Source of the DNA: Prevotellamassilia timonensis
Lineage (GTDB): Bacteria > Bacteroidota > Bacteroidia > Bacteroidales > Bacteroidaceae
Length of the DNA stretch: 24,000 nt
NCBI GenBank assembly: GCA_963589615.1
Contig: CAVALA010000001.1
Span: 132,951 to 156,950 of the forward strand
Direction: 5' to 3'
Shown piece by piece: positions 5,502 through 24,000 of the stretch (its first letter is position 1; each line of letters starts with the position of its first letter). A program made the position numbers and the translations under genes. The notes below the pieces were generated by a model that was not told the DNA's origin, searched no databases, and was given only the letters and a program-made list of their open reading frames with translations.

Positions 5502-6434
5502 CTACTGTTTGATTTCATTGAGTGTTATACCAAGCACGTCACAAATGATGGCCTGACGGGCAAAGAGTCCGTTGTGTGCTTGTTCGAAATAATAGGCATG
5601 GGGATTATTGTCCACGTCGTATGCGATCTCGTTCACACGAGGGAGTGGATGAAGAATTTTCATATTGTCACGGGCACCGGAAAGCATAGAAGCCTTGAGA
5701 ATGTAAACGTCCTTTACGCGCTCATATTCCATAAGGTCTGTGAAACGTTCCTTCTGTACGCGCGTCATGTAGAGTATGTCTGCATCTTTGATGATGTCGG
5801 CGTTAAACTCCTCGTGCTCAACAAAGTGAATATTATTCTCGCGACAGTAAATCTTGTATTCCTCAGGCATTGCGAGTTCTTTCGGAGCGATGAAATGGAA
5901 TGTCGGATTGAAATGACGCATAGCCATGATGAGCGAGTGCACCGTGCGTCCATACTTGAGATCACCCACTAAATAGATGTTGAGGTTTTCAAGTGTACCC
6001 TGCGTCTTGTAGATGCTGTAGAGATCAAGCATGGTTTGGGAAGGGTGCTGATTTGCGCCATCGCCGGCATTAACGACGGGAACGGGCGAAATCTCGCTAG
6101 CGTAGCGTGCAGCGCCTTCAAGGAAATGACGCATTACTATCACGTCGGCATAGTTGCTGACCATCATTATGGTGTCCTTCAAGGTTTCACCCTTAGTGGA
6201 ACTAGTTACCTTGGGGTCTGTAAATCCAATGACGCGGGCGCCCAAACGATTAGCTGCCGTTTCAAAAGAAAGGCGGGTGCGCGTGGAAGGCTCGAAGAAC
6301 AGCGTAGCCACGACCTTATCGTCAAGAATTTTCCGGTTCGGATTTTTCTCGAACTCCTGTGCCATACTGATTAGATAGAGAATTTTCTCTTTCGACAAAT
6401 TGGCAATCGTCACCAAGCTATGTTTCTCTGACAT
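5502..6434 (-). CDS. pyrB: Aspartate carbamoyltransferase catalytic subunit
   Basis: Motifs [13 protein letters not shown] and HPLPR are present. I place the start at the ATG at 6434 ([10 protein letters not shown]..., 310 aa). The upstream 34 codons of the track ORF look like non-coding leader. Confidence 0.95.
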
Positions 6435-6780
6435 GTTGTGAGTGTAAGATAGTTTTGCACGCAGTTTCAGCCGCATGAAACCATGTGTTTGTTTTAACGT
6501 AGTGCATGCAGTTTGCCTTAACAATCCAACATTCATGGGCTTTTAAAGACCATTGGGAAGCTAGGAAAGTGCAGCCGCGGCTTTTATTATCGGTAAAATT
6601 AGTCAGAAAAGATGAGTTGATTGAAACGCAGAGGCGTCTTTTTTTGTGTGCGTTGGGCGTTTGACCGATTTTCGCAGAAACGCAGCAGTTTTGTCAGAAC
6701 TATTCGGTAACTTTGCTTCTCATCGTTTTATGCAATAGACGCAAGAAGTTTACAGCCTTTTATTCCTCCATGTTTTTCGC

Positions 6781-17955: not shown

Positions 17956-19125
17956 ATGGACAGCAACCAACGTTATATGATGCGCGGTGTATCCGCCATG
18001 AAAGAGGACGTTCACAACGCCATCAAGAACATCGATAAGGGTATTTTCCCGCAAGCATTCTGCAAGATTATCCCAGACATTTTGGGAGGCGATCCCGAAT
18101 ACTGCAACATCATGCATGCCGATGGCGCAGGCACAAAGTCAAGCCTCGCCTACATGTATTGGAAAGAGACTGGCGACCTCTCCGTTTGGAAAGGTATAGC
18201 ACAGGACGCACTCATCATGAACACAGACGACCTTCTTTGTGTAGGTGCCGTAGACAACATCCTCGTCAGCTCCACCATAGGCCGCAACAAGATGCTTATT
18301 CCCGGTGAAGTAATTTCTGCCATCATCAACGGAACGGACGAACTGCTCCAGCAAATGCGCGAAATGGGCGTAGGCATCTACGCAACAGGCGGTGAAACGG
18401 CCGATGTAGGCGACCTCGTTCGCACCATCATCGTAGACTCCACCGTAACTTGCCGAATGAAACGCTCCGACGTCATCAACAATGCCAACATTCGCCCGGG
18501 TGACGTCATCGTAGGTCTTTCATCTTGCGGACAAGCCACCTACGAGAAGGAATACAACGGCGGAATGGGTTCAAACGGTCTGACGTCCGCACGCCACGAC
18601 GTGTTTGCCAAATACCTCGCAGAGAAATATCCCGAGAGCTACGACCACGCAGTACCTGAAGAACTTGTCTACAGCGGCGGTTACAAGTTGACCGATGCCG
18701 TAGAAGGTTCGCCCATCAACGCAGGAAAACTCGTACTCTCCCCCACCCGCACCTATGCACCTGTGGTGAAGAAACTACTCGATGCGATGCGAAGCGAAAT
18801 ACATGGTATGGTACACTGCACCGGCGGTGCACAGACCAAGGTGCTCCACTTCGTGGGCGACAACTGCCGTGTGATAAAGGACAACATGTTCCCCGTACCT
18901 CCCCTCTTCCGTGCCATCGCCGAGCAGAGCGGCACGGACTGGGCAGAGATGTACAAAGTGTTCAACATGGGTCACCGTCTCGAAGTCTACGTATCGCCCG
19001 AAATGGCAGAACAAGTCATTACGATAAGCAAGAGTTTCAACATCGATGCACAAATAGTAGGCCACATAGAAGAAGGTCCGCGCTCATTGACGATAAAGAG
19101 CGAGTTCGGCGAATTCAACTATTGA
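17956..19125 (+). CDS. purM: AIR synthase-related protein (Bacteroidetes-type phosphoribosylformylglycinamidine cyclo-ligase, PurM-like)
   Basis: 389-aa ORF. HADGAGTKS corresponds to the PurM DGVGTK motif. The length and N-terminus (MDSNQRYMMRGVSA..KEDVH) match the long Bacteroidales form as I recall it. Confidence 0.8.
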   Translation: MDSNQRYMMRGVSAMKEDVHNAIKNIDKGIFPQAFCKIIPDILGGDPEYCNIMHADGAGTKSSLAYMYWKETGDLSVWKGIAQDALIMNTDDLLCVGAVDNILVSSTIGRNKMLIPGEVISAIINGTDELLQQMREMGVGIYATGGETADVGDLVRTIIVDSTVTCRMKRSDVINNANIRPGDVIVGLSSCGQATYEKEYNGGMGSNGLTSARHDVFAKYLAEKYPESYDHAVPEELVYSGGYKLTDAVEGSPINAGKLVLSPTRTYAPVVKKLLDAMRSEIHGMVHCTGGAQTKVLHFVGDNCRVIKDNMFPVPPLFRAIAEQSGTDWAEMYKVFNMGHRLEVYVSPEMAEQVITISKSFNIDAQIVGHIEEGPRSLTIKSEFGEFNY

Positions 19126-19180: not shown

Positions 19181-19393
19181 ATGACCAGACGAAAGACATT
19201 TGAAGCCATATATATGACCGCGTGCATGCTCTGCCTCGGTTTCCTTCTCGGATTTGAGTATCAGGAATTGGTCAACAAAGAGGCGGGATTCGTACGATGG
19301 GCGGGAGGCATCCTCGCCGTCATCGGTTGGTGCTGCATCCTATGGAAAGCAGCATTCCGACTTTTCCGTCCATCCAAAAGAAAAAGACAATAA
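19181..19393 (+). CDS. Small hypothetical membrane protein (two predicted TM helices, basic C-terminus)
   Basis: 70-aa ORF ending 7 nt before prfA. It has two hydrophobic stretches (ACMLCLGFLLGF, ILAVIGWCCILW) and a KRKRQ tail. No family was recognised, so it could be spurious. Confidence 0.4.
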   Translation: MTRRKTFEAIYMTACMLCLGFLLGFEYQELVNKEAGFVRWAGGILAVIGWCCILWKAAFRLFRPSKRKRQ

Positions 19394-19399
19394 CCAGAA

Positions 19400-20512
19400 A
19401 TGGCTGAAAACAACACACTGCTTGAGAAACTGAACGGCCTCGTTTCACGTTTTGAAGAAGTTAGTACACTCATCACCGACCCTTCCGTCATAGCCGACCA
19501 GCAACGTTACGTTCGCCTCACGCGCGAATATAAGGAGCTAGAGAATCTTATGGCAGCGCGAAAGGAATATGCTTCGCTCATCAGCAACCTCGAAGAAAGC
19601 AAAAACATACTCCTCAACGAGTCTGACCCAGAACTCAAGGAAATGGCCCGCGAAGAAGTTGCGGCATGCGAGAAGTCCATTCCTGGAATGGAAGAGCGCA
19701 TAAAACTCATGCTCGTGCCCAAAGACCCCGAAGACGCAAAAAATGCAATTCTAGAAATACGTGGCGGTACGGGAGGCGACGAAGCTGCTCTCTTTGCAGG
19801 CGACCTCTTCCGAATGTACAGCAAATACTGCGAGCGTAAAGGTTGGAAACTTGAAGTGTCAAGCGCAAGCGAAGGCGCAGCAGGCGGTTTCAAAGAAATC
19901 GTCTGCTCAGTAACGGGAGCCGACGTCTACGGCACACTCAAATACGAAAGCGGTGTACATCGTGTTCAACGCGTTCCCGCCACAGAAACGCAGGGACGTG
20001 TGCACACATCTGCCGCAACCGTTGCAGTTCTCCCCGAAGCGGAAGCCTTTGATGTGGTTATCAACGAAGGCGAGATAAAGTGGGATACGTTCCGCTCAAG
20101 CGGTGCCGGTGGACAGAACGTAAATAAAGTAGAGTCAGGAGTGCGCCTCCGCTACAATTGGAAAAATCCCAACACGGGAGTCGTGGAGGAAATACTCATT
20201 GAATGTACCGAAACGCGCGACCAGCCGAAGAACAAGGAGCGTGCTCTCGCACGTCTACGCACGTTCATCTACGACCGTGAGCACCAGAAGTACGTGGACG
20301 ACATCGCTTCGCGCCGCAAAACACTTGTGAGCACTGGCGACCGTTCAGCAAAGATACGTACTTACAATTATCCACAAGGACGCATCACAGACCACCGCAT
20401 CAACTATACCATCTATAACCTCCAAGCTTTCATGGACGGCGACATCCAAGACTGCATTGACCATCTCGTCGTAGCAGAAAATGCTGAACGCCTACGCGAA
20501 GCGGAGATGTAA
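19400..20512 (+). CDS. prfA: Peptide chain release factor 1
   Basis: It has the GGQ motif (SGAGGQNVNKVES) and the RF1-specific PAT tripeptide (RVPATETQGR). The Bacteroidetes-type insertion after the GGQ region (NWKNPNTGVVEEILIEC) is also present. Confidence 0.96.
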   Translation: MAENNTLLEKLNGLVSRFEEVSTLITDPSVIADQQRYVRLTREYKELENLMAARKEYASLISNLEESKNILLNESDPELKEMAREEVAACEKSIPGMEERIKLMLVPKDPEDAKNAILEIRGGTGGDEAALFAGDLFRMYSKYCERKGWKLEVSSASEGAAGGFKEIVCSVTGADVYGTLKYESGVHRVQRVPATETQGRVHTSAATVAVLPEAEAFDVVINEGEIKWDTFRSSGAGGQNVNKVESGVRLRYNWKNPNTGVVEEILIECTETRDQPKNKERALARLRTFIYDREHQKYVDDIASRRKTLVSTGDRSAKIRTYNYPQGRITDHRINYTIYNLQAFMDGDIQDCIDHLVVAENAERLREAEM

Positions 20513-20536
20513 CGGAGCGTCACAACAACTTACCCC

Positions 20537-20722
20537 ATGAGCGACGGAAACTACAACCGAAACCTTCTCCCCTACCATCAGTATGCAAGCGGACTAAGAG
20601 CAGGCAAAGCACAAATGCACAGCAAAACGCTTGTTGCTTTTCGTCAATGGCTTGAAGATGAAGGCTACAGCAAAGAGGATACAGAAAAAGCCTTGCTCAA
20701 GTTGCGCACGTACCTCGACTGA
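20537..20722 (+). CDS. Small hypothetical protein (61 aa)
   Basis: The ATG is 24 nt after the prfA stop. The C-terminal half (LVAFRQWLEDEGYSKEDTEKALLKLRTYL) looks like a real amphipathic helical domain. No family was recognised. Confidence 0.35.
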   Translation: MSDGNYNRNLLPYHQYASGLRAGKAQMHSKTLVAFRQWLEDEGYSKEDTEKALLKLRTYLD

Positions 20723-20776
20723 TATGCAACACGACATACAAGACATTTCTCTCCATAGCACCCCCAACATACAAAC

Positions 20777-21208
20777 TTGAAATCAATGAAAAGAATCAAC
20801 AAACTTGCAGCAACGCTCTTCTTTGCCTTCCTTGCTGTAAGTATTGGCATACAGGCACGAACTGCGGGCAGCCCCGAAAAGACTATCTATGCCTTCGGCT
20901 TCAGCACTTCCCTGACAGACTCCACCATCTATCTAACGCCAATATCCACACTACCCGGTGCATCCATCGACAAGAAAACGCACTTCCTCAACGACCGGAC
21001 GGAATATACTCATCAGCTGAAGACATTCCTCGAGAGCAAATATCCCGGTCACCAGACAAGCGTGATATTCTTCAACACTTCGCGTAAGAAACTTGAAAAT
21101 CAATATGTGAAGGTCAGACGCTCTGCCAAGAAGAACGCTGCCAACAAAGTAGTAGAGCTTGAAGGAAACACATTCAAGTTTGCAGCCGCGCCCCAAGTCA
21201 CAGAGTAA
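20777..21208 (+). CDS. Hypothetical secreted protein (signal peptide, 143 aa)
   Basis: It has an N-terminal signal-like segment (MKSMKRINKLAATLFFAFLAVSIGIQA). The mature part begins TIYAFGFSTSLTDSTIYLT, a pattern I recall from conserved Bacteroidales hypothetical proteins. The function is unknown. Confidence 0.6.
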   Translation: MKSMKRINKLAATLFFAFLAVSIGIQARTAGSPEKTIYAFGFSTSLTDSTIYLTPISTLPGASIDKKTHFLNDRTEYTHQLKTFLESKYPGHQTSVIFFNTSRKKLENQYVKVRRSAKKNAANKVVELEGNTFKFAAAPQVTE

Positions 21209-21287
21209 CATCACGAGCAATTCATCTCTGCAGTAACACGATGTACATAGATGCATCACCTTAATTTTACCAGACAACAAGTTTCCG

Positions 21288-22217
21288 ATGTCACAGTCCT
21301 TGCACTCCTCTCACAAAATAGAACTCTCCATTGCTGAAATCAATTTTACCATAACGGCATCCGACACGCAGTATATCAAAAGATTACTGCCTTCCTACGC
21401 TCCGTTCCAAAGGAAAAAGGACAATACAAGGCAGCACGCAACGGAAGAGGTGGTGGAAGTTGAAGTTAAGGACAACTTCTCCTGCAAGGAAGAACTTTTC
21501 AGTCCCGTTCATGAGTTCTTCACGATGGACATCCGCCAGAAAGTGTTCGAAAGCGAAGAAGGCAATTTGCTGTTCAAACTCTACACTGCAGACGGCGTAC
21601 ATGTTACCACGTTGGTAGCCCCAAAGAACTACGACAAATTCGAAATAGGCTTGTATGGAACCGTTGCAGGGCAGTCCTTTGGACTGAACAACGCAATGAT
21701 GCTCATCTTCACATTAGCAGGCGCAGCACGCCAAACGTTGCTGATACACTCTTCCACGGTCCACTGTAATGGACAAGCATTTTCATTTCTCGGCACAAGT
21801 GGAACAGGAAAAAGCACCCATTCAGACCTTTGGGTGAAACATATTCCAAATGCCTGCATCCTCAACGACGACAATCCCGCTCTCAAGGTGATGCCAGACC
21901 ACACGATCAGAGTGTACGGTACGCCGTGGAGCGGAAAGCGAAACTACTACATCAACGAGTCATACCCGCTTGCGGCTATAGTACGACTACATCAAGCGCC
22001 CAAGAACGAAATCAGCAAACTAAAGCCGATTATGGGATTCGTGGAACTTTGGGCGTCATGCTCCAAACTGATATGGGACCGCGAGTTTTCCAATCAAATC
22101 CGTAGTTTAGTGGAAACCATTTGCACAAACGTAAACTCTTTCTCTTTGAATTGCCTGCCTGATGCCGCAGCTGCCCAACTATGCCACGCCACAGTGACAA
22201 CCCATTTAGAAGAATAA
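21288..22217 (+). CDS. HPr kinase/phosphorylase C-terminal-domain-like P-loop protein (HprK-related kinase)
   Basis: 309-aa ORF. LLIHSSTVHCNGQAFSFLGTSGTGKSTHSDLW (Walker A at nt 21792-21818) is followed by ILNDDNP and GTPWSGK. This layout matches the catalytic domain of HprK and the HprK-related kinases of lasso-peptide clusters. The N-terminal ~150 aa were not recognised. Confidence 0.65.
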   Translation: MSQSLHSSHKIELSIAEINFTITASDTQYIKRLLPSYAPFQRKKDNTRQHATEEVVEVEVKDNFSCKEELFSPVHEFFTMDIRQKVFESEEGNLLFKLYTADGVHVTTLVAPKNYDKFEIGLYGTVAGQSFGLNNAMMLIFTLAGAARQTLLIHSSTVHCNGQAFSFLGTSGTGKSTHSDLWVKHIPNACILNDDNPALKVMPDHTIRVYGTPWSGKRNYYINESYPLAAIVRLHQAPKNEISKLKPIMGFVELWASCSKLIWDREFSNQIRSLVETICTNVNSFSLNCLPDAAAAQLCHATVTTHLEE

Positions 22218-22283
22218 GAAGCCGTGACCGCTGCGATTTCATTCCTCAATTTAATCCGGTCCTTCTTAAACACGCCGTTATAA

Positions 22284-22799
22284 ATGTCCACTTCAAATAC
22301 ACAGGATACGCAACAAGAGAAACACACCATCACCCTCCCGAACGATGAATTCGTGAAATTCATCGAAAGAGACATTCAAGAGGGACATAGCGTGACCATC
22401 ATAGCCAAAGGATGGAGCATGAGACCATTCCTTGAAAATAGACGGGACAAAATAATACTGACCCCCCTACCGACGTCAGGTCTTAAAGTAGGCGATGTGG
22501 TACTTGCGAAGACGGACATCAACAATTGCGTACTGCATCGAATCATAAAGATTGAAGGTAGCACCATAACGCTTCAAGGCGACGGCAACGCCTTTGGCAC
22601 CGAACGCACAAGCAACGAAAGAGTTGTGGCAAAGGCTACGGCATTCATAAGAAAAGGACGCCAAAAAGCAGAAAGCGTAGACTCCGCAAAATGGAGAATC
22701 TATTCCTTCATATGGATGCACACACGCCCCTTACGCAGATATTTCCTCTACATCTACCGCCATTTCTTGGCAGACAACGAGAAGTACGGCAAACTCTAA
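22284..22799 (+). CDS. S24/S26 family serine peptidase, Sec11/SipW (S26B, Ser-His)-like, without N-terminal membrane anchor
   Basis: 171-aa ORF. It has GWSMRPF (catalytic Ser box, Ser45 at nt 22416-22418), GDVVLAK, VLHRIIKI (His where bacterial SPase I and LexA have Lys) and LQGDGNAFGTE (compare TKGDNN in Sec11/SipW). The N-terminus is hydrophilic (MSTSNTQDTQQEKH...). Confidence 0.7.
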   Translation: MSTSNTQDTQQEKHTITLPNDEFVKFIERDIQEGHSVTIIAKGWSMRPFLENRRDKIILTPLPTSGLKVGDVVLAKTDINNCVLHRIIKIEGSTITLQGDGNAFGTERTSNERVVAKATAFIRKGRQKAESVDSAKWRIYSFIWMHTRPLRRYFLYIYRHFLADNEKYGKL

Positions 22800-22875
22800 G
22801 CAACGGCTGATGTAGAACAATGTTTGCGGACACTCTTTCGCCCACAGTAACATTCACCACAAGACCAAACATAAA

Positions 22876-23142
22876 ATGAAAATCAAACCAGGATTCGAAA
22901 TGCGTGACGTATGCGGAGAGAAAGTAATCTTTGCAAACGGCATCAGCAACATAGACTACACGAAATTCAACGTTTCCAACGAGACAGGCGCATTTATCTT
23001 CGACCTTATGGCACGAGGCACCGAGGACGAGACGCAGATAGCAGAAGCACTGATGGCAGAATACGATGTCAACGAGGAAACGGCTGCTGAAGACGTACAC
23101 AATTTCTGTCAACAACTGAAAGACGCCGGCATTGCCGAGTAA
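22876..23142 (+). CDS. PqqD family protein (RiPP recognition element-like peptide chaperone)
   Basis: 88-aa ORF with the typical PqqD pattern: an N-terminal beta region ([13 protein letters not shown]), then [47 protein letters not shown]. Confidence 0.7.
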
Positions 23143-23200
23143 GCGTACATACCCTCACGATTTATCAGCTAACATTCAACATACATACAACAACACATCA

Positions 23201-24000
23201 ATGAAAGAACTTGCATTAAAGTATGGTTGCAATCCCAACCAAAAACCCTCACGCATCTACATGGAAGAGGGTGAGTTGCCCATAGAAGTACTTGGCGGTC
23301 GCCCCGGCTACATCAACTTTCTCGATGCTCTCAACGGTTGGCAACTGGTACGCGAACTCCGCGCAGCAACAGGACTTCCCGCAGCAGCTTCGTTCAAGCA
23401 CGTATCACCTGCTGGCGCAGCTGTAGGTATGCCATTGAGCGACACCTTGCGCAAGATTTACTTCGTTGATGATGTAAAGGAGCCTCTCACTCCCATAGCA
23501 TCAGCTTACGCACGTGCTCGCGGTGCGGACCGCATGTCGTCCTACGGCGATTTCATCTCTCTGTCCGACACTTGCGACCTTGCCACCGCACTCCTCATCA
23601 AACGTGAAGTGAGCGATGGTGTCATCGCACCCGACTATACCCCCGAAGCACTCGAAATTTTGCGTGCAAAGAGAAAGGGCACATATGTCATCCTCAAGAT
23701 GGACACTAACTATCGCCCTGCCCCCATTGAACACAAGCAGGTCTTCGGCGTGACCTTTGAACAAGGTCGTAACGAGATAGACCTCACGGGCGAAGATCTC
23801 TTTGAGAACATACCCACAGAAAACAAAACATTCACCGAAGATGCCAAGCGCGACCTCCGCATTGCCCTCATCACACTCAAATACACGCAGAGCAACTCAG
23901 TATGCTACGTCAAAGACGGTCAGGCCATCGGCATCGGAGCTGGACAGCAAAGCCGCATACACTGTACACGCCTTGCCGGCAACAAGGCCGACATATGGTG
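23201..24000 (+). CDS. purH: Phosphoribosylaminoimidazolecarboxamide formyltransferase (AICARFT domain, PurH-like), 3' end outside the window
   Basis: Frame 2 is open from the ATG at 23201 to the window edge, so it is not in the ORF track. My translation [16 protein letters not shown]...[13 protein letters not shown]...[12 protein letters not shown]...[32 protein letters not shown] carries AICAR transformylase signature segments. It starts directly at the transformylase domain, with no MGS-like IMP cyclohydrolase domain at the N-terminus. Confidence 0.88.

Follow-up and report, generated by a model that had tools for sequence, protein, structure and literature searches.

A Bacteroidales gene cassette joining a PEPCK/HprK-superfamily enzyme, an S24/S26-fold peptidase and a PqqD-family RRE: a candidate module for the maturation of a ribosomal peptide or small protein

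Results

Organization of the locus

The window, that is, the whole 24-kb stretch of DNA analysed here, carries three ORFs on the same strand, K, S and D, whose coordinates agree with those of the preliminary description and which are separated by gaps of 66 and 76 nt (Table 1). The motifs by which K had been recognized are present as quoted, FLGTSGTGKSTHSDLW at residues 167-182 and ILNDDNP at residues 191-197. The gene prfA does lie upstream of K, as had been claimed, but it is not the immediate neighbour: a 61-aa ORF and a further gene, X, intervene. X is tightly linked upstream of K and the cassette of the window thus comprises four genes.

Table 1. Genes and ORFs of the cassette region of the window
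Feature	Position	Strand	Length	Description
61-aa ORF	20537..20722		61 aa	ORF between prfA and K
X	20786..21208	+	140 aa	secreted orphan protein, fourth cassette gene of the Prevotellaceae lineage
K	21288..22217	+	309 aa	two-domain P-loop enzyme of the PEPCK/HprK superfamily (Pfam PF27840 'ScmC'), putative ATP-dependent kinase
S	22284..22799	+	171 aa	soluble S24/S26-fold serine peptidase with S26B (ER/archaeal-type) Ser/His signature, putative leader peptidase
D	22876..23142	+	88 aa	stand-alone PqqD-family RRE, putative leader-peptide-binding protein

Hydropathy analysis detected neither a signal peptide nor a transmembrane segment in K, S or D, and from this absence all three are predicted to be cytoplasmic. 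The other genes of the 24-kb window have housekeeping functions, and neither an exporter nor a nucleotidyltransferase gene lies within it. No structured RNA of the window matched Rfam. A scan that lacks statistical power revealed no terminator-like site on the + strand between 20400 and 23400; promoter and terminator predictions as a whole stayed at background level, the promoter model being one that does not cover Bacteroidota promoters. An anti-phage defence system was also considered and rejected, as none of the PADLOC models matched X, K, S or D at E<=0.01.

K is a PEPCK/HprK-superfamily protein distinct from HprK

K was initially described as an HprK-like kinase. Its membership of the PEPCK/HprK P-loop superfamily stands, but K is not HprK proper, no Pfam HprK match being obtained at E<=1. 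Residues H154, G169-SGTGKSTH-178, L192-NDDNP-197 and G211-TPWSGK-217 are invariant among 28 homologues of 33-87% identity. They comprise the feature set of HprK/P, namely the catalytic histidine (H154), the GxSGxGKS P-loop (G169-SGTGKST-177) and the acidic DD pair (D194-D195), a pattern which is common to PEPCK and therefore marks the superfamily, not HprK specifically.

The family is large, with 2,497 clusters of homologues, and family models place it between several groups. NCBIfam models were matched by 20 (PEPCK), 17 (ScmC), 17 (HprK_rel_A) and 11 (HprK_rel_B) of the 28 members, whereas the true HprK model, TIGR00679, was matched by a single one (8.6e-4). All NCBIfam scores of K are below the curated cut-offs. 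K weakly matches TIGR04249, TIGR04352 and TIGR04355 far below their equivalog cut-offs (19 against 125 bits for the first, 16-18 against 200 bits for the others); for ScmC TIGR04249, K itself scored 19.1 bits against 125, and the best of the 17 weakly matching members reached 4.4e-6. The Pfam family PF27840 'ScmC' is precomputed for most of the 120 K homologues listed, and it is assigned to the K of the window itself (locus L084, precomputed, E<=1e-5).

For the structure model of K (AF2, pLDDT 92.8, pTM 0.90), the top 50 Foldseek matches in the PDB are all PEPCK structures, starting from E=1e-8 and aligned over both domains (TMq about 0.5, TMt about 0.3). The sequence alignment with PEPCK_ATP is confined to some 55 residues surrounding the P-loop, and K has 309 residues against about 530 for PEPCK; K belongs to the PEPCK fold superfamily and is not a member of the PEPCK family. 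Searching the sequences of the PDB with K or with S as single sequences returned nothing meaningful, while profile results were weak but coherent. At the level of sequence models, K appears nearest to ScmC and to the HprK-related A and B proteins rather than to true HprK; it is equidistant from these and from PEPCK, and not specifically HprK-like. Since the best structural matches are small-molecule enzymes and K is equidistant from all these groups, a role of K in phosphorylating a protein or peptide is an inference.

S is an anchorless S24/S26-fold peptidase

The assignment of S as a Ser/His peptidase of the S26B kind is upheld by an intact catalytic signature and by profile and Foldseek support for the S24/S26 beta-barrel fold. 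G43-x-S45-M46, H85-R86, G99-D100-G101-N102, E107, W144 and R151 are invariant in sets of 28 and 31 homologues. The catalytic Ser of box B (SM-x-P in S26B) corresponds to S45-M46, F49 being nearly invariant; box D has His instead of Lys (H85-R86), and box E (GD-x-N) is G99-D100-G101-N102. This equivalence follows from motif order and from the TIGR02228 alignment of residues 37-120. TIGR02228 matched S with 2.2e-7 and 30.9 bits, under its cut-off of 51.85, and matched 21 of 28 family members, likewise below cut-off; Pfam Peptidase_S24 matched 24 of 28, and the NiSOD maturation protease model 14 of 28. NCBI names the homologues 'S24/S26 family peptidase'.

Foldseek searches with the S model (AF2, pLDDT 76) found human SEC11A best (7p2p_A, 9.6e-4, probability 1.00), followed by lambda cI, LexA, SpsB and SipA (4n31); the fold also resembles that of the self-cleaving proteins LexA, lambda cI and UmuD. 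That S is anchorless was borne out, as it contains no transmembrane segment (maximal 19-aa hydropathy 1.32) and no N-terminal hydrophobic segment. Its C-terminal tail is conserved, basic/aromatic and amphipathic. Invariant catalytic residues at about 30-40% identity in both K and S indicate that the two proteins are under selection as active enzymes.

D is a PqqD-family RRE close to the lasso B1 proteins

D matches Pfam PqqD (PF05402) with 1.1e-15 and 58.1 bits, well above the cut-off of 23.4, and its identification as a PqqD-like RRE holds. The best NCBIfam models are the lasso PqqD chaperones NF033530 (2.2e-10) and NF033536 (1.3e-8), both under cut-off. When the D family profile was searched against the PDB, TfuB1 (9.4e-7), a lasso PqqD chaperone and TbiB1 came first, with genuine PqqD ranking behind. 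Matches with ScmD TIGR04248 (17.8 bits, cut-off 100) and PqqD_rel_X TIGR04353 are weak. D is 43% identical to its counterpart in locus L001. By homology D is an RRE of the lasso-B1 type, and its relationship to B1 proteins solved as leader binders makes it a putative leader-peptide-binding protein. PqqD-like RRE proteins are a handle for mining RiPP pathways and, to our knowledge, every characterized stand-alone PqqD-family protein is a peptide-binding RRE.

X is a secreted orphan protein of the Prevotellaceae form

Mechanical ORF finding starts X at TTG 20777, while independent gene calls place its start at the ATG at 20786. The protein consists of a type-I signal peptide with a hydrophobic N-terminus (KD 1.86), ending at about IQA, followed by a conserved domain of about 100 aa with the motif YxFGxxxxLxDSxVYxS. 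While a word-index search recovered no more than 6 close relatives, an exhaustive one showed the family to have 758 representatives at 50% identity; neither Pfam nor the PDB yielded a relative. An N-terminal hydrophobic segment is present in 143 of 150 representatives. In X proteins this segment ends in AQA, SAQ or similar; one Asp is invariant, and a DS motif is conserved.

Besides the window, 15 non-redundant loci contain X, whose end always falls between -80 and +61 nt from the start of K; X was independently called as a gene in L084, L085, L086 and L088. The gene that immediately precedes K in L001 shares 38% identity with X (3e-25). A diverse profile of 39 sequences still revealed no X in type-1 loci. 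X and an adjacent ABC exporter are mutually exclusive, the exporter occurring in 0 of 9 full-flank loci with X against 42 of 52 without it (Fisher p=5e-6). X-type loci essentially form one clade and this exclusivity may reflect a single evolutionary event.

The cassette is conserved across Bacteroidales

Linkage was counted in 61 species-level loci with at least 3 kb on both sides (full-flank loci) and in a wider set of 82 loci. Among the former, K has S as a neighbour in 57 and D in 56; 52 loci have both, and none of the 61 lacks both. The order K, S, D on the same strand within 1.5 kb is kept in 59 of the 82 loci. K and S are fused as a single ORF in L036, as are S and D in L081, where one protein matches both Peptidase_S24 (2e-6) and PqqD (3.6e-5); L001 and L088 show a 4-nt overlap between the K and S genes. 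On the outside the cassette is bordered by housekeeping genes that are unrelated to one another, no flank family covering more than 4 loci, and a genuine PEPCK gene adjoins the cassette in four loci. The claim that the trio is a unit is therefore sustained by synteny in about 80 species, non-conserved flanks and both kinds of fusion.

Bacteroidales of gut, mouth and rumen carry the cassette, in hundreds of lineages including Prevotella and Bacteroides, and it looks like a vertically inherited core module rather than a strain-variable natural-product cluster. In most lineages other than the Prevotellaceae it is accompanied by an ABC exporter (42/61 full-flank loci) and often by a PF14907 nucleotidyltransferase (N) (17/61; 18/82 in the wider set). 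The majority architecture is K-S-D-(N)-ABC, where ABC stands for a half-transporter of the exporter type (ABC_membrane+ABC_tran). The window form is derived from it by reduction. The module had been called minimal, a term that does not suit the cassette in general, since the majority form adds the ABC exporter and often PF14907.

Search for a core enzyme, a precursor and earlier descriptions

As had been proposed from the window alone, no RiPP core enzyme belongs to the cassette: neither a lasso cyclase, a transglutaminase-like B2, a radical SAM enzyme nor a YcaO recurs within 7-10 kb on either side of the 82 loci. Neighbour families were defined by all-against-all BLAST clustering rather than by direct HMM scans of every ORF, and by this measure S, D, X, N and ABC are the only families that recur within 7 kb of the 82 loci. 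Where D is displaced by 2-5 kb, a hidden core enzyme was sought among the intervening genes and rejected, as these encode a GH3 protein, an aminotransferase and an NTP transferase on the other strand.

A substrate gene was equally elusive. Clustering of ORFs of 18-90 aa inside or within 900 nt of the 82 cassettes gave only alternative-frame shadows of conserved genes, and the immediate unassigned neighbours of the cassettes form no family. The lasso leader motif YxxPxLxxxGxxxxxTx was matched 3 times in six-frame translations around 80+ cassettes against 2 times in a shuffled control, never within a plausible small ORF. The 61-aa ORF between prfA and K was rejected as a precursor, since its conservation does not extend beyond close relatives.

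No published description of the cassette was found in the full-text literature, in line with the earlier description, which knew of no characterized example. An antiSMASH 'RRE-containing' cluster family, homologous across at least 10 oral Prevotella species and with no product assigned, has been reported without gene content, mechanism or substrate (PMC13455363). The cassette, itself an RRE locus common throughout that family, has probably already been flagged by antiSMASH in Prevotella under this label.

Discussion

A possible maturation module

The locus was first seen as a possible leader-guided phosphorylation-and-cleavage module. Its existence as a unit, its RRE and its peptidase signature are now established, while the phosphorylation and cleavage of a leader-bearing substrate is still a matter of hypothesis. 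Tentatively, and short of calling it probable, we favour the view that X-K-S-D is the Prevotellaceae form of a Bacteroidales cassette which matures a ribosomal peptide or small protein in the cytoplasm, in a lasso-like manner without a cyclase. D would bind an N-terminal leader of the substrate and present it to K, which would most likely phosphorylate a hydroxyl side chain, like the HprK-like kinases of the paeninodin type. D would also hand the substrate to S, which would remove the leader in place of the lasso cysteine protease B2. Lacking a macrolactam cyclase, the pathway would give a linear product. It would be completed in most lineages by a dedicated ABC exporter, and the PF14907 nucleotidyltransferase, often present, could decorate the phosphate; the locus of the window's lineage has neither gene and encodes the secreted X instead.

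The proposal is favoured by the linkage, the fusions and the varying flanks of the cassette, by the invariant catalytic residues of K and S, by the likeness of D to lasso B1 and of the majority architecture to the accessory set of paeninodin/pseudomycoidin clusters, and by the predicted cytoplasmic location of K, S and D. In addition, the models nearest to K, ScmC and HprK_rel_A/B, have PqqD counterparts named for the same systems (ScmD and PqqD_rel_X), and the match of half the S members with the NiSOD maturation protease model offers, by analogy, a precedent for an S26 enzyme that trims leaders. The lack of a linked substrate gene, the PEPCK-like structure of K, the housekeeping setting and the sub-cut-off scores of K and S count against it, as does the lack, in the window form, of an exporter that would let a cytoplasmic product leave the cell.

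X itself could be the substrate in the Prevotellaceae form, D binding its signal-peptide-like N-terminus with the classical A-x-A end, S cutting it and K phosphorylating it before or after; lineages with the ABC exporter would then use a different, unlinked substrate. X abuts K in 16/16 X-type loci despite differing outer flanks and excludes an adjacent exporter, its AQA/SAQ-like ends fit the -3/-1 specificity of S26-type enzymes, and it is a large orphan family whose members share an Asp without exception and a DS motif. Yet linkage within essentially one clade may be inherited synteny, and type-1 loci show no X even with a diverse profile. The normal site of Sec signal-peptide cleavage, moreover, is outside the cytoplasm, where membrane SPase I acts, while K, S and D are predicted to be cytoplasmic, and RREs normally bind short peptide leaders, not the signal peptides of folded 12-kDa domains. 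We consider a role of X as substrate unlikely. Decidedly unlikely, in our estimate, is a new class of RRE-dependent maturation without a macrocyclase, in which a soluble Sec11-type Ser/His peptidase, guided by the lasso-B1-like RRE, would act as leader peptidase in the cytoplasm and a miniature PEPCK-fold kinase would add a phosphate, with X as the substrate in Prevotellaceae and its signal-peptide-like N-terminus as the leader.

Alternatively, the cassette may not act on a peptide at all. K could be a PEPCK-like phosphotransferase for small molecules that serves the biosynthesis or export of envelope components or metabolites, with the ABC protein exporting the product and S and D as accessories, S as a LexA-like protease, self-cleaving or regulatory, and D as a non-canonical adaptor. 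Such a role would suit the top 50 structural matches of K, all of them PEPCKs aligned over both domains, the 20/28 members matching the PEPCK subfamily model, the genuine PEPCK genes beside four cassettes, the resemblance of S to LexA, lambda cI and UmuD, the fruitless precursor searches, and the housekeeping surroundings with apparent vertical inheritance. It is opposed by D, closest to lasso B1 in a family whose characterized stand-alone members all bind peptides, and by the S+D fusion, which physically ties the protease to the RRE. K lacks most of the PEPCK mass, with TMq of only about 0.5, and its nearest sequence models are ScmC and HprK-related proteins with PqqD-family partners; S displays a His-type S26B signature rather than the Ser/Lys dyad and cleavage-site loop of LexA. 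We therefore think a non-peptide pathway improbable.

Very unlikely, in our view, is a kinase-gated regulatory proteolysis. Here S would act, in a SodX-like way, on a regulator or an enzyme precursor of the cytoplasm, with D as targeting adaptor and K setting the timing by phosphorylation; the ABC protein would not export a product but serve as partner or as a target of the regulation. The 14/28 NiSOD-protease matches, the core-like distribution in a housekeeping context, the absence of a hypervariable precursor nearby and the conserved basic/aromatic tail of S, suggestive of docking to a partner or the membrane, agree with it. However, type-1 loci contain no linked conserved candidate target, the strict pairing with an exporter-type half-transporter and PF14907 better fits tailoring and export of a product, and no precedent for RREs in regulation is known to us. 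Finally, a nonfunctional remnant of a lasso cluster that lost its cyclase, protease and precursor could account for the lasso-like accessory genes (B1-like D, HprK-superfamily K, PF14907, ABC) and for the absence of cyclase and precursor, but it is effectively refuted by the conservation pattern, that is, K and S catalytic motifs invariant across hundreds of lineages at 30-40% identity, preserved gene order and translational coupling (the 4-nt K/S overlap), the emergence of fusions, and S as a consistent, specific addition.

Whatever its substrate, the cassette locks a lasso-B1-like RRE to two enzymes, a serine peptidase of the S26 type and a member of the PEPCK/HprK superfamily. It does so in hundreds of Bacteroidales lineages, among them abundant Prevotella and Bacteroides of the rumen and of the human gut and mouth. 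Should it yield a phosphorylated linear peptide or a matured protein, it would add a new type of leader peptidase and possibly a new RiPP-like class, would explain the recurrent 'RRE-containing' orphan cluster of microbiome BGC surveys, and would assign a role to three or four families of conserved hypothetical proteins, among them the 758-cluster X and Pfam 'ScmC'. If X proved to be the substrate, the dominant gut, oral and rumen Bacteroidales would share a conserved protein-maturation pathway rather than a peptide natural product. With four genes, the cassette is tractable for heterologous reconstitution.

Comparison with known systems

In the paeninodin and pseudomycoidin lasso clusters, K phosphorylates the C-terminal Ser of the precursor, N glycosylates the phosphate and B1 binds the leader (PMC8498205). 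These Firmicutes clusters (A, B1, B2, C, D, K, N) share with the cassette a stand-alone PqqD/B1 protein, a P-loop kinase of the HprK/PEPCK superfamily, a PF14907-type nucleotidyltransferase and a half-size ABC exporter. Unlike them, the cassette contains no Asn-synthetase-like cyclase C, no transglutaminase-like B2 and no lasso precursor or leader motif, whereas it does encode an S26B-like Ser/His peptidase, and its K fits no HprK model; the window form further differs by lacking N and the exporter and by containing X. Every characterized RRE we know of works with a class-defining enzyme.

S shares the S24/S26 fold and Ser/His motifs with the S26 maturation peptidases SodX, SipW of B. subtilis and SipA of S. 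pyogenes, each of which is dedicated to one or few substrates, SodX trimming the NiSOD precursor. It differs from them by having no membrane anchor and by being coupled to an RRE, to which it is even fused in L081.

The closest parallels to the pairing of K with D are the SynChlorMet cassette (ScmC/ScmD) and the 'HPr-rel-A system' (HprK-related A/B with PqqD_rel_X), both defined only as TIGRFAM/NCBIfam models, in which an HprK/PEPCK-superfamily protein likewise accompanies a small PqqD-family chaperone. As far as we know, they too are uncharacterized and have no identified precursor. SynChlorMet includes two radical SAM/SPASM enzymes, ScmE and ScmF, while no such enzyme recurs near the cassette described here; the S24/S26 peptidase, X and the distribution in Bacteroidales set this cassette apart from both systems.

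Gene content and flanks of the cassette

The genes for a kinase-like P-loop enzyme (K), a peptidase of the S24/S26 fold (S) and a PqqD/RRE protein (D) lie on the same strand with intergenic gaps of 66 nt (K/S) and 76 nt (S/D), and thereby reproduce the coordinates, orientation and spacing proposed in the preliminary description of this locus. The P-loop and ILNDDNP motifs quoted there were both found in K. Likewise, no plus strand terminator-like site was detected within 20400-23400, in a scan that itself performed at background level. The flanks are indeed made of housekeeping genes, but prfA is not the immediate neighbour of K as had been described, since a 61-aa ORF and a gene coding for a secreted orphan protein, X, intervene. 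The remaining genes of the window code for SHMT, PyrB/PyrI, a GH2 beta-galactosidase, Def, RuvX, SerRS, TPM/LemA, PurM-like, PrfA and PurH-like proteins, and neither an ABC exporter nor a PF14907 gene was found in its 24 kb.

Features of the cassette and of its surroundings (positions in the window)
Feature	Position	Strand	Size	Remarks
PurM-like gene	17956..19125	+	389 aa	AIRS and AIRS_C domains matched weakly (about 1e-11)
70-aa ORF	19181..19393	+	70 aa	two hydrophobic stretches; between PurM-like gene and prfA
61-aa ORF	20537..20722	+	61 aa	between prfA and X
X	20786..21208	+	140 aa	between PrfA and K
K	21288..22217	+	309 aa	
S	22284..22799	+	171 aa	
D	22876..23142	+	88 aa	
PurH-like ORF	23201..24000	+		58 nt after D; runs past window end

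Several neighbours deserve mention in their own right. The 61-aa ORF is 84% identical in the homologous locus L085, whose K is only 66% identical; it is gene-called in L084 and L085, absent at every other cassette locus, and exhibits only weak, insignificant matches to the XerD N-terminus. The 70-aa ORF may encode a small membrane protein, and L085 carries at the same position a called gene of 75 aa that overlaps the start of prfA there. Instead of a canonical PurM, the PurM-like protein, whose place beside LemA is conserved in L085, may represent a divergent protein related to AIR synthase. The alignment of the PurH-like ORF with Pfam AICARFT_IMPCHas starts only at profile position 76 and no MGS/IMP-cyclohydrolase domain was found at its start; this ORF may represent a paralogue that is truncated or limited to AICARFT.

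Proteins encoded by the cassette

While K itself gave no match against the local Pfam collection, its homologues carry the newer family PF27840 'ScmC'. Among 28 members of the K family, NCBIfam models for the PEPCK subfamily (20), ScmC (17), HprK-related kinase A (17) and HprK-related kinase B (11) were recovered, and the true HPr kinase model in a single member. H154, G169-SGTGKSTH-178, L192-NDDNP-197 and G211-TPWSGK-217 are invariant. Every one of the best 50 PDB matches of its confident AF2 model (pLDDT 92.8, pTM 0.90) is a PEP carboxykinase, and the alignments span both domains (E=1e-8 upward, TMq about 0.5). Based on these family matches, invariant motifs and structural matches, K belongs to the PEPCK/HprK P-loop superfamily as a miniature member with two domains. 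The initial label 'HprK-like' thus holds at the level of the superfamily but is too specific, and the identification of K as HprK/P was rejected.

Taken alone, S matched nothing but TIGR02228 (archaeal/ER-type signal peptidase I), and did so at a score under the cut-off (2.2e-7). In its family, Pfam Peptidase_S24 was found in 24 of 28 members, TIGR02228 in 21, bacterial signal peptidase I in 12 and LexA in 9. The invariant residues G43-x-S45-M46, H85-R86 and G99-D100-G101-N102 are the signatures of boxes B, D and E of the Ser/His S26B subfamily, and the best PDB match of the AF2 model (pLDDT 76) is human SEC11A, followed by lambda cI, LexA, SpsB and SipA. Both the motifs and this top match agree with the S26B-like Ser/His peptidase first proposed, which was also correctly called anchorless, no hydrophobic anchor being found in the sequence of S. 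Its conserved C-terminal tail is basic, aromatic and amphipathic (W144, R151, R152).

D matches Pfam PqqD at 1.1e-15 and clearly belongs to the PqqD family, as had been claimed. Its top NCBIfam matches are two lasso PqqD chaperone models. When a profile of 29 family members was compared with solved structures, TfuB1 ranked best (9.4e-7), followed by a lasso PqqD chaperone and TbiB1, with genuine PqqD below these lasso B1 proteins. D is an RRE whose nearest relatives are lasso B1 proteins.

In X, a type-I signal peptide is combined with a linker rich in Lys and with a conserved domain some 100 aa long; it has no relative in Pfam or the PDB. An exhaustive HMMER search yielded 758 representatives at 50% clustering, all small stand-alone proteins; an N-terminal hydrophobic segment is present in 143 of the top 150.

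Distribution and synteny

Homologues of K form 2,497 90%-clusters, and a one-genome-per-species scan confirmed at least 335 relatives, the best 80 of which were taken further. Nearly all of these 80 belong to Bacteroidales; K-bearing taxa include Prevotella, Alloprevotella, Prevotellamassilia, Paraprevotella, Bacteroides, Muribaculaceae, Proteiniphilum, Dysgonomonadaceae and Cryptobacteroides, among others. Two of the 80 fall outside this order. The Sphingobacterium siyangense isolate (L031) has the gene order S-D-ABC-K. In the MAG labelled Fibrobacter succinogenes (L082), the contig bears the usual K-S-D-ABC order and its K groups with Bacteroidales sequences, a pattern that points to mis-binning or transfer.

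HMMs refined by iteration for the proteins of the cassette delineated 82 non-redundant loci; in 59 of them K, S and D follow one another in this order, all on the same strand and within 1.5 kb. Of the 61 loci flanked by 3 kb or more on either side, 57 have S, 56 have D, 52 have both, and none lacks both. K and S are fused in one 441-aa ORF (L036:9650-10975), and S and D in one 246-aa ORF matching both Peptidase_S24 and PqqD (L081:4276-5016), although both loci come from MAGs and these fusions may therefore be sequencing or assembly artefacts. In independent gene calls, the K and S genes share 4 nt (L001, L088). In loci where D has moved a few kb away, the genes in between bear no relation to the cassette and are read from the other strand. 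The flanking genes (e.g., CTP synthase, sigma-70, Mur ligase, PEPCK, phosphate transporter, OmpA, methyltransferase, DAG kinase) are not conserved, the biggest flank family covering 4 loci. Since linkage is conserved, fusions and a gene overlap occur and the flanks vary, the cassette is an autonomous, sharply bounded module set among housekeeping genes; the trio keeps its synteny across related genomes, so that the corresponding refutation named in the preliminary description fails.

Some loci show particular arrangements. In L085, a close relative, the place behind S at which D would be expected is taken by an ORF (5720-6454) presumably resembling Rpn-family/PD-(D/E)XK transposase-like proteins; as this contig stops at that point, D may have moved or been lost. 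Four related loci (L030:12264-13871, L041:4464-6071, L044 and L075) have a genuine gene for PEP carboxykinase (PEPCK_ATP 1.9e-198) immediately after the cassette, on the other strand; K itself is PEPCK-like in fold. L039 (7181-12000) reads D-ABC-S-K-D-ABC, with two PqqD proteins, two ABC exporters, one K and one S.

Accessory genes and search for core enzymes and substrates

When all ORFs within +/-7 kb of the cassettes were clustered, three more families, and no others, proved recurrent. Directly after D, 49 of 82 loci (42 of the 61 fully flanked ones) carry an ABC exporter of half size (ABC_membrane and ABC_tran, about 546 aa); a PF14907 'uncharacterised nucleotidyltransferase' (N; 4.9e-45) occurs in 18 of 82, and X in 15, the window included, or 16 if L058 is counted, where X was overlooked by the 3-kb proximity count. 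Two architectures emerge: the majority [N]-K-S-D-[N]-ABC, and X-K-S-D without adjacent ABC or N. X and an adjacent ABC gene never occur together (0/9 vs 42/52, p=5e-6); as X-type loci are essentially one clade of the K tree, this exclusivity may reflect a single event. The X-type form is found in abundant lineages, one of its K clusters holding 1,032 member sequences. The initial interpretation is partly borne out and is extended by a fourth gene, X, by a broader five-gene ancestral form and by the relatedness of the RRE to lasso B1.

No family of lasso cyclases, B2 proteases, radical SAM or YcaO enzymes recurs among the ORFs clustered within +/-7 kb of the 82 loci, in agreement with the reported lack of a core enzyme; consequently, the trios do not always sit beside a lasso cyclase or a radical SAM enzyme, as a known RiPP class would have it. 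No substrate gene was found in or around the cassettes: small ORFs (18-90 aa) there form clusters only as alternative-frame shadows of conserved genes, and the lasso leader motif occurs nearby at background level. The 61-aa ORF upstream of X was rejected as a substrate, being limited to close relatives.

Proposed function

We tentatively favour a pathway in which D would bind the leader of a substrate, K would phosphorylate this substrate using ATP, S would take off the leader, and the linear product would be exported where the ABC transporter is present. This reading is the best supported because the component logic fits the accessory half of lasso clusters, with an S26B-like peptidase for B2 and no cyclase. 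The phosphorylation-and-cleavage or maturation module first put forward is supported as a linked unit lacking a core enzyme, but we infer both the chemistry of K, including its substrate class, and the substrate of the cassette, and the structural neighbours of K are small-molecule enzymes.

X is the sole linked substrate candidate, in one lineage only, and is unlikely to be the substrate in Prevotellaceae. A non-peptide, small-molecule pathway seems equally doubtful. The NiSOD maturation protease model was matched by 14 of the 28 S family members, and a SodX-like, kinase-gated regulatory proteolysis of a cytoplasmic protein is rather improbable. A decayed lasso remnant is essentially excluded by the invariant catalytic motifs.

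Under the favoured leader-guided reading, the cassette would stand for RRE-dependent maturation that relies on a new type of protease and has no class-defining enzyme; its function and substrate are hypothetical. Uncharacterised so far, it occurs widely in important bacteria and lends itself readily to testing.

Comparison with known systems

In paeninodin/pseudomycoidin-type lasso clusters, leader binding is the task of B1 (PqqD), a homologue of HPr kinase puts a phosphate on the C-terminal Ser of the precursor, which a nucleotidyltransferase then glycosylates at that phosphate, and the product is exported through an ABC transporter (PMC8498205). The component logic of our cassette is that of the accessory half of such clusters. 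Unlike them, it has an S26B-like Ser/His peptidase in place of the cysteine protease B2, physically tied to the RRE in the S and D fusion, and no cyclase. Tests for a cyclase, for B2 and for a precursor all came out negative, which places the cassette outside the lasso class. To our knowledge, there is no precedent for an S26-type peptidase as RRE-coupled protease, a loose analogy with SodX aside.

The pairing of an HprK-superfamily protein with PqqD is common to this cassette and to the SynChlorMet and 'HPr-rel-A' systems, which are uncharacterised and defined only as protein-family models. The cassette was rejected as a SynChlorMet cassette (no radical SAM partners; K scored 19 bits vs a cut-off of 125).

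In line with the preliminary description, which knew of no characterised example, no description of the cassette was found in the full-text literature, whose coverage leaves out most subscription journals, nor is it covered in a Bacteroidales RiPP-mining paper. An antiSMASH 'RRE-containing' cluster family without function, kept in at least 10 oral Prevotella species (PMC13455363), is probably this locus. By analogy, the cassette would come closest in its working to a lasso-derived pathway that lacks a cyclase and serves RRE-guided tailoring and export.
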